Sequence record: PP920554.1
Source: Escherichia phage SM_S24
Length of the DNA stretch: 43,039 nucleotides
Strand: one strand, 5' to 3'
Below the pieces are notes generated by a model. That model ran no database searches, was not told the DNA's origin, and worked only from the letters and a program-made list of their open reading frames with translations. The translations under genes and the position numbers were made by a program. Each line of letters starts with the position of its first letter. Positions within the stretch are counted from its first letter, which is position 1. Below, piece by piece: positions 5,033 to 38,926 of the stretch.

Positions 5033-5573
5033 TGGCCCCTTTTTCGTTAGCGCGGAATACCGCACGGCAGCGTGGCTTATAGATCGGCAGCGATTTTCCG
5101 TCCTCGTCCACTTCACACACTGAAGCCAACATAACTGTCTCGAACCCCGGAACGATATCGCCGAGATCAGGCGAGAGCTTATTCATATATTTCTCTTCCC
5201 AGTATCCGCGATGTACGCGGTATTGGCGACCGTCACCGCTCAAGGACAAGATGCGAACATTGCCGCCTGCGTTGATTTCAAAGGTGGCGTCGTAAACGCT
5301 GCCGATACCCTTCGGGCGATCTGTGTCATAGCGATATGTTGCCTTGTTGGTGTATACGCTGACGCTGTACATCTGCGACTGGTCGTCGCGGATTGCCTTG
5401 ATATGCTCGCGGAGCGCTGCGAACGTGCGAATGCCTTCCGGCATACAGTCAAGCGTGATTGCGTACGCCAGATCGCGTGAGTCCATCATGATTTGTTTGG
5501 CTTCGGTTGCGATTTCGTGGTCGCGCAGGATGTTAGCCAGAATCTGATTTTTAATGACTTTAGTAAGTCTCAT
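5019..5573 (-). CDS. hypothetical protein (reverse-strand moron in head module)
   Basis: 184 aa from ATG at 5573 (RBS GAGGA, 7-nt spacer); the longer track ORF 5019..6020 is an N-terminal extension antisense to the scaffold gene; own promoter-like boxes upstream and terminator hairpin at its 3' end. Confidence 0.55.
   Translation of the reverse strand: MRLTKVIKNQILANILRDHEIATEAKQIMMDSRDLAYAITLDCMPEGIRTFAALREHIKAIRDDQSQMYSVSVYTNKATYRYDTDRPKGIGSVYDATFEINAGGNVRILSLSGDGRQYRVHRGYWEEKYMNKLSPDLGDIVPGFETVMLASVCEVDEDGKSLPIYKPRCRAVFRANEKGAITAP
5023..5044. terminator. bidirectional intrinsic terminator between Rz1 and the reverse-strand moron
   Basis: GGGGCC-GTAAT-GGCCCC followed by TTTTT; overlaps the last codons of both convergent genes. 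Confidence 0.6.
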
Positions 5574-5602
5574 TTTTGTGTCCTCGTTGTTGGTGTGCAA
5601 CC

Positions 5603-5631
5603 AATATATGCAACCAATACACGGATTGCAA
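5603..5631 (-). promoter_or_regulatory. sigma70-like promoter for the head-module moron, overlapping TGCAACCAAT boxes
   Basis: minus strand reads TTGCAA-17 nt-TATATT; spacer holds ATTGGTTGCA and a second copy lies just downstream. Confidence 0.45.
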
Positions 5632-10491: not shown

Positions 10492-10507
10492 ATTGGAGAA
10501 TACTACA

Positions 10508-10870
10508 ATGGCTAAAGCACCACTCTTCACACTTGACCCAAAGCCGACCTTTAAGCTGCCGATTGAGATCCCGCGCCCTGGTGAGAACGAACCTGGCAAG
10601 ATGACGTTTACCGTCCGCCACCGCCCTATCGACGAATTTTCGCAAACCATGCAGGACACAGAACGGAAGCTGTCGGAATATGACGACAATGACCCGGACG
10701 GCTTTAACGTTATGGTCGAGGCCATCATGCACGTCGCGGAAGGCTGGAATCTGCCAGACGAATTTAACGCGGAGAACGTCCGCCGCCTGGTGGTCAACTA
10801 TCCACGCGCGTTCGGGGTGTTCCATACGTCGTACTATCTCGAACTGATGGGATTGCGTGAAAAAAACTAA
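10508..10870 (+). CDS. tail assembly chaperone (G-like)
   Basis: 120 aa from ATG 10508 (RBS GGAGAA); acidic small protein immediately upstream of the tape measure gene; ends at slippery A_AAA_AAC. Confidence 0.6.
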   Translation: MAKAPLFTLDPKPTFKLPIEIPRPGENEPGKMTFTVRHRPIDEFSQTMQDTERKLSEYDDNDPDGFNVMVEAIMHVAEGWNLPDEFNAENVRRLVVNYPRAFGVFHTSYYLELMGLREKN

Positions 10871-11184: not shown

Positions 11185-11185
11185 T

Positions 11186-11447
11186 GAAGCGGGACAAGCG
11201 GGACGCCCCGTTTTGTCCCGCCCCTGTAAAACTGCATATCTAATCACTTTCATTGCATAAACTCAAAGCGGGACAGGCGGGACGTCCCGTTTTGTCCCAC
11301 CCCTGAAATGTGCATACCTATTCGAATTTCGTGCATAAAACAAACGGGACAGAAAGCGGGACAAATGCGGGGCGGGACAAAGCGGGACAGCACCCCATCC
11401 CCACCAGTGCTGCCGCGGTTTTCAGCCGATCGGGACAGGCGGGACAA
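11186..11447 (+). repeat. array A of GCGGGACA(R) octamers with interspersed TGCATA(A) boxes
   Basis: at least 10 same-strand octamer copies (about 11189, 11198, 11268, 11277, 11343, 11355, 11372, 11382, 11431, 11439) plus inverted GTCCCGC copies; non-coding gap between GT stop and tape measure start. Confidence 0.8.
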
Positions 11448-11448
11448 A

Positions 11449-11500
11449 CCCCAGTCTTTCAGACTAGACGGGGGTCAACGGCCCCCCTCGTCTGAGACTG
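11449..11500 (+). other. conserved imperfect hairpin element, copy 1
   Basis: CCCCAGTCTTTCAGACTAGACGGGGG-TCAACGG-CCCCCCTCGTCTGAGACTG; both arms identical to the copy at 38331-38383, loop differs. Confidence 0.75.
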
Positions 11501-11569
11501 AATAAGGTTTGTTTTAAAATCGCTGATACAATGTCAATCGGCAACTGCATAAAAAAAGGGGACTGCATA

Positions 11570-23944: not shown

Positions 23945-23974
23945 ACTATAGTGCAACCAACCTATTGGTTGCAA
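23945..23974 (-). promoter_or_regulatory. sigma70-like promoter with inverted-repeat operator
   Basis: minus strand TTGCAA-18 nt-TATAGT; spacer holds palindrome TGCAACCAA-CCTA-TTGGTTGCA; a 5' UTR hairpin follows. Confidence 0.45.
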
Positions 23975-25564: not shown

Positions 25565-25645
25565 CGTGTTGTCTCCAGGTATTAAAAAAGGCGTCCAAAC
25601 CGGACACCCTTAAGATAATGCAACCAATATGATTATGCAACCAAT

Positions 25646-32134: not shown

Positions 32135-32199
32135 TTTCCAATTCCTCATTTTCACATGTATCGGGGTTATTATGAGCCACCCCGTTCGGCTTGGTTGCT

Positions 32200-32228
32200 A
32201 ATCTACTTGGTTGCGCCTAAGCGGTCAA
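32200..32228 (-). promoter_or_regulatory. sigma70-like promoter for the SSB operon
   Basis: minus strand TTGACC-17 nt-TAGATT; GCAACCAAG in the spacer and again just downstream of the -10. Confidence 0.45.
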
Positions 32229-35296: not shown

Positions 35297-35626
35297 ATGA
35301 ATATCAAAGAAGCAATTGAAGTGTTATCTAATGCAATCCGCGGCGAAGCGGGTAAATCCTGGTATTACACAAATGCGGTGGATACTCTGTTATTTGAAGT
35401 GTCCAGATTATCGCGTGCTGAGAAGGAGCTTACCGCGAAGCTGGAATTACTCAACGGTACGGCAGCAAGCAAGCTGCAAAAGCACAATGAAGAAATGGAA
35501 GAATACAAAAAACAGGTTATCCGTCTACGTGAGGAAGGTAAATCCTGGGCGATGATTGCCGAGTTGACCGGAATTAATCAGAGCACAGTGCGCTCCTGGG
35601 TACGCAATAATAAAACTTCTAAGTAA
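35297..35626 (+). CDS. HTH DNA-binding protein (putative transcriptional regulator)
   Basis: 109 aa, RBS AGGAG; C-terminal helix-turn-helix-like segment WAMIAELTGINQSTVRSWV; first rightward gene at the divergent promoter region. Confidence 0.55.
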   Translation: MNIKEAIEVLSNAIRGEAGKSWYYTNAVDTLLFEVSRLSRAEKELTAKLELLNGTAASKLQKHNEEMEEYKKQVIRLREEGKSWAMIAELTGINQSTVRSWVRNNKTSK

Positions 35627-35636
35627 GGCCACGGCA

Positions 35637-37901
35637 ATGAGCTTAATTAAATTCGCTGTAACAAGACCCGCTAAAAAAGGCGAAAAAGCCAGGGCGGAAA
35701 ACTTCCAGATGACTACCGAAGAGTTTTTCGAATTTATCAATGATGCGAAAGAAATCTCCTCGGTGCATATCAACAAAACGGAAGATAAAGCCGAGTATGC
35801 ACGCCGCAAGCGTAAGGCCGACGGCATCGTGGCGTATACCAGTGACGGATTGCGTCGCAAGACCAGTGCGGTGGACCGCTCGATCCTGTTCTTCGATATT
35901 GACCGTACTGACACCCGCACCCTACGCCGCTGCCGTAAGGCGTTCATCGACGCGGGACTGGAGCACGTCTTCCACACCACAACCGGCGACCGTCACCCAC
36001 TGAAAGGTGGAACGCGTTGCGCTCGCTTCCTGGTGTTGACCGACAAGCCTGTACCGGCTGAAGACCTGGGCCGTGTCCAGTATGCGCTATTACACCAACT
36101 GGGCCTGTCAGATGTGGACTTCGACGACTGCACGAAAGACACAAACCGCCTTATGTACCTACCACACCAGCAGTCTGTTATTAAGTGCCACTATGGCAAG
36201 CGCGCCCGCGTCCGTCGTCTGCTTCGCCTGGCTGACAAGCTGGGAGTTGAGAAAGAGGAAGTCCGCCGCGAACTGACCCAGGGCGACGACGCAGTGGCAG
36301 ACGGCATTCTGGACTGGTGCTTCCAGGCAGGATTCGAGGAGTTATCTTCCGGTCGGGGTTATGAAGTGCCGTGCCCGAACGAACATCTGCACAGCGGCGA
36401 AGGGTCGACGGCTATCATGGTCAAGGATGGCGAGATCCGTTTCAAGTGTATGCACACAGGCAACGAGTGTTGCTCGGAACTGAATAGGCACCAGCACCTG
36501 GCGCTACGTCTTATCGGGATCCCGGACCACCTGAACGTCGAGCCACACAATATGTCCCGTAAGCAAATCGCCGCCATCCTTCCGGGGCTGGACGACGAAG
36601 AAGTCGAATCCTTATATGAACATATTGTTGATGCAGTTGGCGACGGCGAAGAATACGGCGTGTGCACCGATGCAGATCTGGATAACGAGCCGGTTGCGCT
36701 GTTCAGTAAGCACGACCCGATTATCGAGGGGTTGATTAACTTTAAATCGACCTGGTACATGGCGGGTGAGTCGAATATCGGTAAGTCTTTCTACGTGCTG
36801 GGCCAGATGGGTGCGGTTGCCGCGGGGATTCCGTTCGGCGGTGCGAAGGTCGTCCAGTCTCATTGCTTCTATTTCGACGCGGAAGGTGGTGAAGCCTCCA
36901 ACCAGCGTAAGGAAGCACTGCAGATCAAATATGAGCACGACCTGGATAAGCTGCACATTATAGACCTGCAGTCACGCGGCTGGGATATCACCAGCAAATC
37001 AGGCTTGCGCGAAGTTATCAGCTTTATCAACCGCACCGCTAACGGCGAACCGGTTGGCCTGGTGGCGTTCGACTCTCTCAACCAGACTGTTGCGCTGCGG
37101 TCCGCCGATGCTAAACCGTTCGACGAGAACAACGCCAGCGATATGGGCGAAGTGGTAAAAGCGCTGAAAGCCATCGCGGAAAATACCGGCGGCAGTGCTG
37201 GCGTCATCCACCACCCGGCGAAGGGTGCAAACGGCAGCAGATCCCCCCGCGGGTCCGGCGCGCTGCATGGTGCTGTTGATTCTGCGTTCTTCCTTGAGCA
37301 ACCGGACGACAACCAGCCAGGCCAATTGAACCTGTATCACGAAAAGGCACGTAACGGCATCAAGCAAGCGCCGCGTGGCTTCGTCCTGCTCAAGTGCAAG
37401 GTGAAGGTAGATCTCCGCAAGTCAGAAGCGTTCGCGTCGCACCAGTCCACCAGCACCGGTCCGGACTTCGGCGACGTGGTTGCCGGATGGGACGTCAAGC
37501 CGATTGCCTCCACGCCACGCGACGAGACTCTCTACCTCGTACCGGTTGCCCTGGCACCGTTCGCTATTGAACAGGCGAAGGCCGCGGGCAAAGCAGCAGT
37601 TAAAGAAGAGAACACCGCCGGACCGCGCAACGAAAAAGAGAAAGTGCTCTATGCGGCACTGGAAAAACTGATGGAAGATAACCCGGACCATACTGGATTC
37701 AGTAAATCGGCAATTGTCCGCCAGGCTGGGCTGGCAAAAGGTGGCACTTCGACGAAGGCAATCGACGATATGGTGGAGCGAGGAGTGATAGGTTTTTACA
37801 CCGATCCGCACACCGGGGCCATCTATGGGTCGTCTAATTTGGTCATCAAATCGGATATACCCATCACGCTTTCAGCGACCGATGACGATTTAAAAGATTA
37901 A
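35637..37901 (+). CDS. primase-helicase (AEP-type primase, zinc-binding region, P-loop NTPase)
   Basis: 754 aa; N-terminal DxD-type motif ILFFDIDRTD, Cys/His cluster CPNEHLHSGE...CMHTGNEC, Walker A GESNIGKS and Walker B-like LVAFDSL; iteron array begins at its stop codon. Confidence 0.7.
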   Translation: MSLIKFAVTRPAKKGEKARAENFQMTTEEFFEFINDAKEISSVHINKTEDKAEYARRKRKADGIVAYTSDGLRRKTSAVDRSILFFDIDRTDTRTLRRCRKAFIDAGLEHVFHTTTGDRHPLKGGTRCARFLVLTDKPVPAEDLGRVQYALLHQLGLSDVDFDDCTKDTNRLMYLPHQQSVIKCHYGKRARVRRLLRLADKLGVEKEEVRRELTQGDDAVADGILDWCFQAGFEELSSGRGYEVPCPNEHLHSGEGSTAIMVKDGEIRFKCMHTGNECCSELNRHQHLALRLIGIPDHLNVEPHNMSRKQIAAILPGLDDEEVESLYEHIVDAVGDGEEYGVCTDADLDNEPVALFSKHDPIIEGLINFKSTWYMAGESNIGKSFYVLGQMGAVAAGIPFGGAKVVQSHCFYFDAEGGEASNQRKEALQIKYEHDLDKLHIIDLQSRGWDITSKSGLREVISFINRTANGEPVGLVAFDSLNQTVALRSADAKPFDENNASDMGEVVKALKAIAENTGGSAGVIHHPAKGANGSRSPRGSGALHGAVDSAFFLEQPDDNQPGQLNLYHEKARNGIKQAPRGFVLLKCKVKVDLRKSEAFASHQSTSTGPDFGDVVAGWDVKPIASTPRDETLYLVPVALAPFAIEQAKAAGKAAVKEENTAGPRNEKEKVLYAALEKLMEDNPDHTGFSKSAIVRQAGLAKGGTSTKAIDDMVERGVIGFYTDPHTGAIYGSSNLVIKSDIPITLSATDDDLKD

Positions 37902-38167
37902 ATTTTGCGCGCATTGGTCGCCGTTATGGGAATCCCCATATCGGTAAAAGATTAAATTTTGCGCGCATTGGTCGCCGTTATGGGAATCCCCATATCGGTA
38001 AAAGATTAAATTTTGCGCGCATTGGTTGCCATTTTGCGTGCTTTTAGCCGGTCGTTAAAAGATTAAATTTTGCGCGCATTGGTCGCCGTTATGGGAATCC
38101 CCATATCGGTAAAAGATTAAATTTTGCGCGCATTGGTTGCCATTTTGCGTGCTTTTAGCCGGTCGTA
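37892..38167. repeat. iteron array, candidate origin of replication
   Basis: five tandem 54-57 bp units (A-A-B-A-B) sharing core AAAAGATTAAATTTTGCGCGCATTGGT(C/T)GCC with the 8-bp palindrome TGCGCGCA; begins at the primase-helicase stop codon. Confidence 0.6.
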
Positions 38168-38194
38168 TTGGTTGCCGTGTAGTGTAAATATAAT
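38168..38194 (+). promoter_or_regulatory. promoter-like element upstream of GGGACA array B
   Basis: perfect TATAAT at about 38189-38194 with weak -35 (TTGGTT, 15-nt spacer) inside an ATTGGTTGCC box. Confidence 0.35.
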
Positions 38195-38224
38195 GAATAG
38201 TTATGCAGTTTTATTGCATAAAGT

Positions 38225-38330
38225 AAGCGGGACAAAAAGCGGGACAGACCAGGGGCGGGACAAAGCGGGACAGCACCCTGTCCCGCCCCGGATGACGCGG
38301 CCTGGCGAGGAGCGGGACAGCGGGACAGCA
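38225..38330 (+). repeat. array B of GCGGGACA(R) octamers
   Basis: copies at about 38227, 38239, 38255, 38265, 38312, 38321 plus inverted TGTCCCGC at 38279; preceded by a TTATGCA/TGCATAA inverted pair and a TATAAT box. Confidence 0.8.
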
Positions 38331-38383
38331 CCCCAGTCTTTCAGACTAGACGGGGGGTCTGGCACCCCCCTCGTCTGAGACTG
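38331..38383 (+). other. conserved imperfect hairpin element, copy 2
   Basis: CCCCAGTCTTTCAGACTAGACGGGGGG-TCTGGCA-CCCCCCTCGTCTGAGACTG; arms identical to copy 1. Confidence 0.75.
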
Positions 38384-38542
38384 CATAAAATCCGGGATTG
38401 CATAACGCACGGCAACAAGATGCGAATTGCGGTCGTCGATGAACTAGGCAACCAATGCGCGTTGCAGAATGGTGGGCGAAAAATGCAGTTTGCAGTTGCA
38501 GCAGATAGCGATCAACTTTTTCATGCGCGTGATTAATATTGG

Positions 38543-38571
38543 TTGCATTCACCCTGGCACCCTGCTATTTT
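38543..38571 (+). promoter_or_regulatory. promoter-like element upstream of the 38600 operon
   Basis: TTGCAT-17 nt-TATTTT; -35 inside ATTGGTTGCAT, second TTGGTTGCA just downstream; region nearly identical to the moron 5' region. Confidence 0.45.
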
Positions 38572-38599
38572 GGTTGCACACCAACAAGAGGACTGAACG

Positions 38600-38926
38600 A
38601 TGAGAGCGATTATCTGGAATTACGCAATGGCTATGGCGGCGGCACAAGAAGCGGCGGAGTTCGCCGGTGAAGGAGCGGAAGCGGTCGAAAGACTATCGGC
38701 AGCGTGGTCCGTTGTTCGCGTTACGCAGCAGGCCATCGCCTGTATGCTGGAGCGCCGCTTCGACACTATGGCAGAGATTCAGCCACTGGCGAACGCTATC
38801 CAGGATTACGCGCTTGCCTTTGCCCGTGAGCGCCTGGCGTATCGCTTCGGGATCGGCGAGACGGCAGTGACTAACGTCGCCCGGATTAAAGCCCAGCGTG
38901 AGCTATTCTCCCAGCTTGCGAAATAA
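38600..38926 (+). CDS. hypothetical protein
   Basis: 108 aa, RBS AAGAGGA 7 nt upstream; first gene after the second GGGACA array. Confidence 0.45.
   Translation: MRAIIWNYAMAMAAAQEAAEFAGEGAEAVERLSAAWSVVRVTQQAIACMLERRFDTMAEIQPLANAIQDYALAFARERLAYRFGIGETAVTNVARIKAQRELFSQLAK

Follow-up and report, generated by a model that had tools for sequence, protein, structure and literature searches.

The oriV of IncQ plasmids contains 20-bp iterons together with separate ssiA and ssiB sites. In phage P4 the origin repeats are eight nucleotides long, occur both directly and inverted, and recur at crr, kilobases away, and in PICIs the iteron sequence and the specificity of Rep vary together from island to island. 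The proteins that act at such sites have been described for several replicons. On RSF1010 the iterons are bound by RepC, RepA acts as the unwinding protein, and RepB′ synthesizes primers on ssiA and ssiB once these stem-loops are exposed (PMC4234260). P4 alpha is a multifunctional primase-helicase whose C-terminal winged helix binds the origin repeats, and ORF904 of pRN1 unites an AEP primase-polymerase, a helicase and a C-terminal winged helix in one protein, as is also the case in phage BIP-1; the pRN1 origin is a stem-loop of ~100 nt that lies immediately 3′ of the gene for this protein, its structure being conserved and its sequence variable (PMC4234260). In PICIs and SaPIs, pri-rep is followed by an origin with two sets of short iterons (PMC6092414).

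Here we analyze a locus in Escherichia phage SM_S24, a Dhillonvirus. The window, i.e. the whole stretch of 43,039 nt that was analyzed (PP920554.1), encodes a helicase-primase, downstream of which lies a non-coding module named region B; a second copy, region A, precedes the tape-measure gene. We consider it probable that region B is a replication origin with A as its second copy, and that the GCGGGACA octamers (words) of both are iterons bound by the winged helix of the helicase-primase. The gene and region B comprise the following features:

35637–37901, plus strand: helicase-primase (754 aa), composed of a predicted N-terminal AEP primase-polymerase domain that bears a Cys/His cluster, a RecA-fold helicase of RepA-like type, the C-terminal winged helix and, at the very end, an acidic tail.
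37632–37847, plus strand: coding region of the C-terminal winged helix (aa ~666–737), the proposed word reader.
37891–38166, plus strand: tandem repeat of 54/111 bp (TRF) with one ATTGGT(T/C)GCC per unit.
38185–38420: region B, whole module, with six direct GCGGGACA words, a seventh in inverted orientation and an imperfect palindrome of 50 nt.
38185–38226, plus strand: AT-rich segment (81% A+T), candidate unwinding or host-factor site.
38194–38207, plus strand: palindromic box TGAATAGTTATGCA, conserved from Dhillonvirus to Guernseyvirinae.
38215–38221, plus strand: degenerate second box around TGCATAA, inside the AT-rich segment.
38227–38286, plus strand: putative iteron set 1, with four direct GCGGGACA words at 38227, 38239, 38255 and 38265.
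38279–38286: inverted word of set 1, forming a 9-bp palindrome with word 4.
38287–38311, plus strand: GC-rich spacer (76% G+C) between the sets.
38312–38327, plus strand: putative iteron set 2, two abutting direct GCGGGACA words (38312 and 38320).
38334–38383, either strand: 50-nt imperfect palindrome that folds on both strands, proposed melting and priming stem-loop analogous to ssi sites.
38382–38417, plus strand: segment with two direct TGCATAA half-boxes (38382 and 38399).
38408–38417, plus strand: conserved CACGGCAACA box.
38543–38571, plus strand: promoter of the 38600 operon, which precedes the ATG at 38600: TTGCAT (38543–38548), 17 nt, TATTTT (38566–38571), identified by eye and lying within two TTGGTTGC motifs.

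The six direct words and the inverted word are packed into 101 nt of non-coding DNA. Exact copies of GCGGGACA occur 18 times in the window compared to 2.03 ± 1.5 times in shuffled sequences (none of 100 shuffles reached 18), and 13 of the 18 fall in the two patches. Folded as single-stranded DNA, the hairpin yields −15.1 kcal/mol on the plus strand (z = −3.7) and −15.7 kcal/mol on the minus strand (z = −3.2). A sequence-only reading of the same DNA had already pointed to most of these elements, and we found them in their claimed places: six direct octamers plus an inverted copy, TTATGCA (38201–38207) facing TGCATAA (38215–38221), a TATAAT box after the tandem array (38189–38194) and the hairpin, which had been placed at 38331–38383. 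The promoter-like region described ahead of the 38600 operon was likewise recovered by eye, as TTGCAT-17-TATTTT below the threshold of our scan. The same reading called the neighboring repeats an iteron array, a label that we reassign: those repeats are the 54/111-bp tandem repeat, and the octamers are the likely iterons.

The tandem repeat overlaps the end of the helicase-primase ORF, beginning within its last 11 nt. Its copy number varies among Dhillonviruses, as the distance from the stop codon to the box is 58, 74, 128 or 293 nt, and it is absent in Guernseyvirinae, the more distant relatives compared. Sister lineages carry two to three short ATTGGTTGCC copies at this place.

Region A and the promoter behind it are composed as follows:

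11186–11343, plus strand: A1 and A2, two direct half-modules of ~79 bp.
11344–11446, plus strand: putative iterons of A3, words at 11344, 11356, 11372, 11382, 11430 and 11439.
11452–11500, no strand assigned: copy of the palindrome, aligned to that of B.
11524–11532, plus strand: extended −10 TGaTACAAT, identified by eye; the tape-measure ATG (11570) follows 38 nt further on.

In A1 and A2 alike, two direct words are accompanied by a single inverted one and by a TGCATA-N15-TGCATAA pair. Region A contains at least 12 words plus a full copy of the module. A3 (11332–11502) aligns collinearly with B (38215–38385); compared octamer by octamer, the word positions of the two arrays agree, with a common spacing of 12, 16, 10, 47/48 and 8/9 nt. 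The palindrome arms of A are those of B minus one G in the 5′ G-run, and the loop reads TCAACGG in A and TCTGGCA in B. The copies are separated by 27 kb, or by about 16 kb via the terminase end of the permuted genome. Region A was found in every Dhillonvirus genome where it could be checked and was absent from two complete Guernseyvirinae genomes that were scanned. It belongs to a 385-nt non-coding insert (11186–11569) between the genes for the tail assembly chaperone (Phage_TAC_4, 10493–10870, with a frameshift extension ending near 11185) and the tape measure, which are contiguous in Guernseyvirinae. Concerted evolution of the copies is weak, with an A/B identity of 81.7% within a genome versus 79.9% between genomes. 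Among 16 genomes, A found its best match in its own B in five; the same loop variants and both the 8-nt and the 9-nt spacing of the last word pair appear in A and B of different genomes, a weak sign of exchange between the copies.

On the condition that the upstream TATAAT is active, the sequence-only reading set array and hairpin in a long 5′ leader. We could not uphold this part: at the position of 38189 other Dhillonviruses have TATAGT, AATAAG or AAGAAG, Guernseyvirinae lack the box altogether, and conserved promoters lie downstream of each module, not upstream. Ahead of the 38600 operon phage Ioannina has TTGCAT-17-TATATT, TGaTACAAT is invariant in 17 region-A sequences, and the promoters downstream of the module in the distant relatives are near-consensus sigma-70 promoters (TTGACA-17-TATTGT). 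When both regions were scanned for sigma-70 promoters and terminators, neither array had a promoter upstream of it, and the plus strand showed no terminator. Because no terminator separates region B from the helicase-primase gene, read-through transcription from that gene probably crosses the region. This would suit an array and hairpin that work at the RNA level, within a long leader or 3′ UTR at the heads of two rightward units, e.g. as a put/nut-like antitermination element, a sponge for an RNA-binding protein or a stability element, and so would the presence of both copies on the same strand and the covariation of the stems between subfamilies. We nevertheless regard an RNA element as very unlikely: besides the lack of conservation of the proposed TATAAT and the downstream position of the conserved promoters, the fold is equally good on both strands and no U-tract follows the hairpin. 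Neither the whole window searched against Rfam nor 37850–38650 searched with higher sensitivity gave a match, whether judged by the gathering threshold or by E ≤ 1, two chance miRNA matches aside. What stands of the proposed shared regulatory device is a single selected cis-acting device rather than a chance duplication, without the leader-RNA mode of action; the copies do sit at the heads of rightward units, with a rightward promoter and gene block following closely on each.

The TTGGTTGC motif at the 38600 promoter occurs 20 times in the window compared to 1.9 expected, mostly between genes and often in pairs (38539–38577, 5597–5617 (−), 25620–25644 (−), 32191–32214, 23953–23972, 28579 (−), 21705 (−), 35099 and others), and its TTGCA(T/A/C) part is found 17 nt upstream of −10-like hexamers. 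It looks like a promoter class of the phage's own or an operator, and a 109-aa Sigma70_r4/HTH_23 protein (35297–35626) may read it. Near-identical copies of promoter plus 5′ UTR (taTTGGTTGCAt...TTGGTTGCAcaccaacaa(c/g)gaggac...ATGAGA) at 38539–38602 (+) and 5560–5617 (−) head genes on opposite strands; in each, a small hairpin (TTGGT/ACCAA) immediately precedes the ribosome-binding site. A sigma-54 promoter with TGGCAC near 38555 was considered and rejected, as the −12 element is missing.

Unrelated sequence at this place in related phages had been named beforehand as what would speak against a device here. Instead, the module is present in 158 phage records with 75–99% identity, all of them Dhillonvirus-like; the matching lytic siphophages infect E. 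coli, Shigella or Sodalis. We aligned 33 distinct modules, copies of A and B drawn from 18 genomes; 32 of them contain six CGGGAC words, no more and no fewer, each at a constant offset from the hairpin. Across the alignment the arms of the hairpin are near-invariant with rare one-base changes only, the apical loop occurs in 11 variants and the spacers drift. Fixed words next to drifting spacers and loops point to sequence-specific recognition of the word and to a constrained stem. The annotated relative KarlBarth has structural genes on the plus strand and replication genes on the minus strand, then an HTH gene and the helicase-primase gene on the plus strand, followed on that strand by region B, small genes, holins and endolysin. 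In the GenBank record of SO-1, repeat_region notes mark a ‘region A’ before the tape-measure gene and a similar ‘region B’ after the helicase-primase gene. This is the only prior notice that we found: our search of the Dhillonvirus literature yielded no discussion of these repeats, and no published description of a replication origin was found for Dhillonvirus or Guernseyvirinae.

The N-terminus of the helicase-primase models as a RepB′-like AEP primase, and its middle part matches Pfam AAA_25 (2.3e-19), a RepA-type hexameric helicase. For the C-terminal ~75 aa the structure model is a winged helix, the closest folds being the winged helices of ORC1, Cdc6 and ORC4 and MarR-type domains; at the level of fold only, the C-terminus models as a DNA-binding domain. 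In a PDB sequence search the helicase-primase reached RSF1010 RepA (1g8y) marginally (E = 0.45) and did not match P4 alpha. Homologues were collected with the full-length protein as query; the C-terminal 154 aa alone retrieved a single fragment. Every homologue ends in an acidic D-x-D-L-x-D tail regardless of its winged-helix class (37880–37898 in the window), an ending reminiscent of docking tails for polymerase or SSB, for example in T7 gp4.

More distant helicase-primases, 37–49% identical to that of the window, come from Guernseyvirinae (IMG/VR contigs and GenBank phages, for example Pantoea phage AH01, Hafnia phage TS33 and Salmonella phage FSL SP-031). Directly 3′ of the stop codon these relatives carry a box GTGAATAGTTATGCA, usually twice, then three to four direct words and one to two inverted ones; the second half of the module runs in the order GC-rich spacer, two direct words, stem-loop set, CACGGCA(A/G)CA and promoter. 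Their words are CGGACAA, TCCGACA, AGGGATA, GGGGATG and GGGGGA; GTGGCAA is found in one contig (L048) that ends inside its array, and ACTCGCA forms an array of different layout (L067 group). About nine word classes were found. The outer hairpin stem covaries between relatives (AGTCT/AGACT, ATCATC/GATGAT, ATCCTC/GAGGAT); these distant hairpins were folded sequence by sequence, as the MAFFT alignment for RNAalifold aligned poorly.

The word changes together with the C-terminus of the protein. Contig L023 and phage AH01 are about 90% identical in DNA from the HTH gene through residue ~663 of the helicase-primase, and the protein cores are 96–97% identical, whereas the last ~96–100 aa share about 47–50%. 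The word is TCCGACA in L023 and CGGACAA in AH01 and the hairpin stem changes too, yet box and promoter are still 88–99% identical. The word is swapped in the same way between L085 and L087 (core 98%, C-terminus 48%), L090 and L050 (97% and 46%) and L090 and L049 (90% and 55%), and a shared C-terminal class brings the same word even on different backbones. We examined 45 loci, 38 of which have the array directly after the stop codon: in all 38 each C-terminal cluster goes with one word, with no discordant case, CGGACAA being common to three related clusters and GCGGGACA to two. Predicting the word from the C-terminal class of the protein alone succeeded in two of two cases (P0082, TCCGACA; P0118, CGGACAA). 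Overall identity of the C-termini does not separate the classes cleanly, since the same word is found down to 48% and different words up to 67% identity; class-specific residues lie at the start of predicted helix 3 (RRRP, NxRRR, (N/G)RRP, (G/D)RY). Six loci (L074 group) have terminators 3′ of the gene and no array there. In one clade (L019, L020 and L026) terminators directly follow the gene, and hairpin, CACGGCA box and promoter form a block away from it. As another candidate reader of the word we considered the upstream 109-aa HTH protein and rejected it: its gene belongs to the block that is kept when the word changes (L023/AH01 pair), and its family differs, XRE in Guernseyvirinae and another one in Dhillonvirus.

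Co-variation of the word with the adjacent winged-helix domain argues for DNA iterons that are bound by protein, i.e. for an origin, and makes the octamers likely iterons. However, the array lies 60–300 bp from the sequence coding for the domain, so block transfer by linkage could yield co-variation without coupling. Mosaic exchange is common in these phages, and the adjacent C-terminal region and repeats might have been exchanged as a block in which the repeats have little or no function. We find linkage alone hardly credible. On at least three backbones the left breakpoint coincides with the domain boundary; the box between gene and array should permit crossovers that break the pairing; the words are near-invariant while the spacers drift; and region A, about 16 kb or 27 kb away, preserves the same word in a second copy of the module. 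Breakpoint, box and distant copy argue for functional coupling rather than mere linkage.

The CACGGCA(A/G)CA box is found in the gap between hairpin and promoter in both subfamilies (38408–38417 in the window, 5386 in L023, 6503 in L025, 6487 in L028 and 7937 in L026), and six tandem TGGCAGCA units follow it in L026. It could be a priming or loading site. Clusters of CGGGACA pairs also occur, among the matches listed, in unrelated viral contigs from IMG/VR (L146, 8553–8623; L196, 2144–2274; L138, 3286–3347).

Plasmid Rep proteins commonly double as repressors, and the arrays could act as transcriptional operators or enhancers through which the winged helix or another factor switches the 38600 and tape-measure promoters, alongside or instead of origin function. 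Since both modules abut promoters, a transcriptional role is possible and may coexist with an origin. Conserved promoters directly downstream of both modules fit such a role, as does the L019/L026 clade, in which the block of hairpin and CACGGCA travels with the promoter and not with the helicase-primase gene; the same clade counts against an origin tied to that gene. However, the distance from hairpin to promoter is about 30–40 nt in A, 160 nt in B and 50–110 nt in the relatives, a variation that is unusual for activator sites, and the relatives' near-consensus promoters should need no activation. A sequence reader on a primase-helicase is moreover the signature of an initiator, and we judge an operator or enhancer function to be unlikely.

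A further reading combines both roles: A and B would form a pair bridged by the helicase-primase, comparable to ori and crr of P4, that couples replication initiation to the adjacent promoters, with host ArgR as architectural cofactor bound at the conserved pair of palindromes that resemble ARG boxes. We hold it to be rather improbable; if true, a small lytic siphophage would possess a replication-coupled enhancer of late transcription acting on lysis/structural and tail genes. The TGAATAGTTATGCA box fits the core of the E. coli ARG box (G4, A6, T7, A12 and T13; window 38194–38221), and Guernseyvirinae have two boxes 7 nt apart (L030, 45185–45219; L025, 6310–6343). A canonical ArgR operator consists of two 18-bp boxes with a 3-bp gap (PMC6640053). 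The 7-nt separation corresponds to two 18-bp boxes with this gap, which makes ArgR a possible host cofactor; a relaxed ARG-box pattern is not enriched in the window (2 matches versus 1.1 expected), and ArgR is kept as a lead only. DnaA boxes were also considered for TTATGCA (compared to TTATNCACA) and rejected, as positions 8–9 lack conservation.

Short repeated words also occur in some pac sites (P1, SPP1), and the modules might serve another DNA transaction, as a headful pac site, a recombination hotspot or a pause site of ejection. Dhillonviruses package their DNA by the headful mechanism, with a pac site that is not known (PMC9022532). We consider such functions highly improbable: the word co-varies with the helicase-primase and not with the terminase, the module of Guernseyvirinae adjoins the replication gene far from the terminase genes, and two pac sites per genome would be unusual.

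The best-supported reading of the sequences is that the modules are real and functional and would serve replication initiation rather than leader-RNA control. DNA binding and origin firing at the modules are what we infer from this comparison. In the origin model, several helicase-primase subunits would bind the six direct words and the inverted word via their winged helices, and binding would nucleate assembly of the hexameric RepA-like helicase beside the 50-nt palindrome. Melting at the palindrome would expose a stem-loop on each strand, on which the RepB′-like AEP domain of the same protein would prime, and the phage's own Pol I would extend the primers. Melting may be aided by the flanking box segment with 81% A+T and by negative supercoiling behind the promoter, which fires away from the module. 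Overall this would be the IncQ scheme of RepC, RepA, RepB′ and oriV, with the three protein functions fused in one polypeptide. In this model, region A would be a second origin or a partner site resembling crr of P4. The GC-rich spacer between the putative iteron sets counts against the origin model, as this position is AT-rich in PICI origins. The GC skew of the window follows gene orientation only and gives no sign of an origin at either B or A.

Among coliphages and Salmonella phages, Dhillonviruses and Guernseyvirinae are isolated very often, and they find use in therapy and biocontrol work. If the origin model is true, it provides origin and reader domain for the whole phage group, an example of three IncQ replication functions fused in one protein, and about nine naturally swapped pairs of winged helix and iteron word for studying or engineering replication specificity and incompatibility during co-infection. 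Two features are unusual, the proposed fusion of the three IncQ functions in one protein and the duplication of the module inside the tail gene block, between tail chaperone and tape-measure genes; the latter makes a P4-like two-site mechanism directly testable.

Compared to known systems, the locus combines features of several. Two similar hairpin copies near the starts of two transcription units recall put of HK022 and nut of lambda. However, put and nut act as RNA downstream of promoters, whereas conserved promoters lie downstream of the phage element and its repeat word tracks a DNA-binding domain. RSF1010 and R1162 of the IncQ group employ three separate proteins in place of one fused polypeptide of 754 aa, with RepC as separate iteron binder where the phage protein has a C-terminal winged helix. 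The putative phage iterons measure 7–8 bp compared to 20 bp in IncQ, one long imperfect palindrome takes the place of ssiA and ssiB, and the replicon is that of a lytic phage with its own Pol I and two modules per genome. The pRN1 protein differs in its SF3 helicase and the pRN1 origin in having no iterons, whereas the phage element has a putative iteron array plus stem-loop. As in PICIs, the putative origin lies directly downstream of primase/helicase-initiator genes and comprises two iteron sets. In PICIs these sets flank an AT-rich region, whereas here the spacer has 24% A+T and the stretch with 81% A+T lies upstream of set 1; the large palindrome is a further difference. P4 alpha consists of a Toprim primase and an SF3 helicase, in contrast to the AEP primase and AAA_25 helicase of the phage protein, and the PDB sequence search revealed no homology between the two. 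The likeness to P4 lies in a primase-helicase with a C-terminal winged helix and in the second cis site with the same words, region A paralleling crr.
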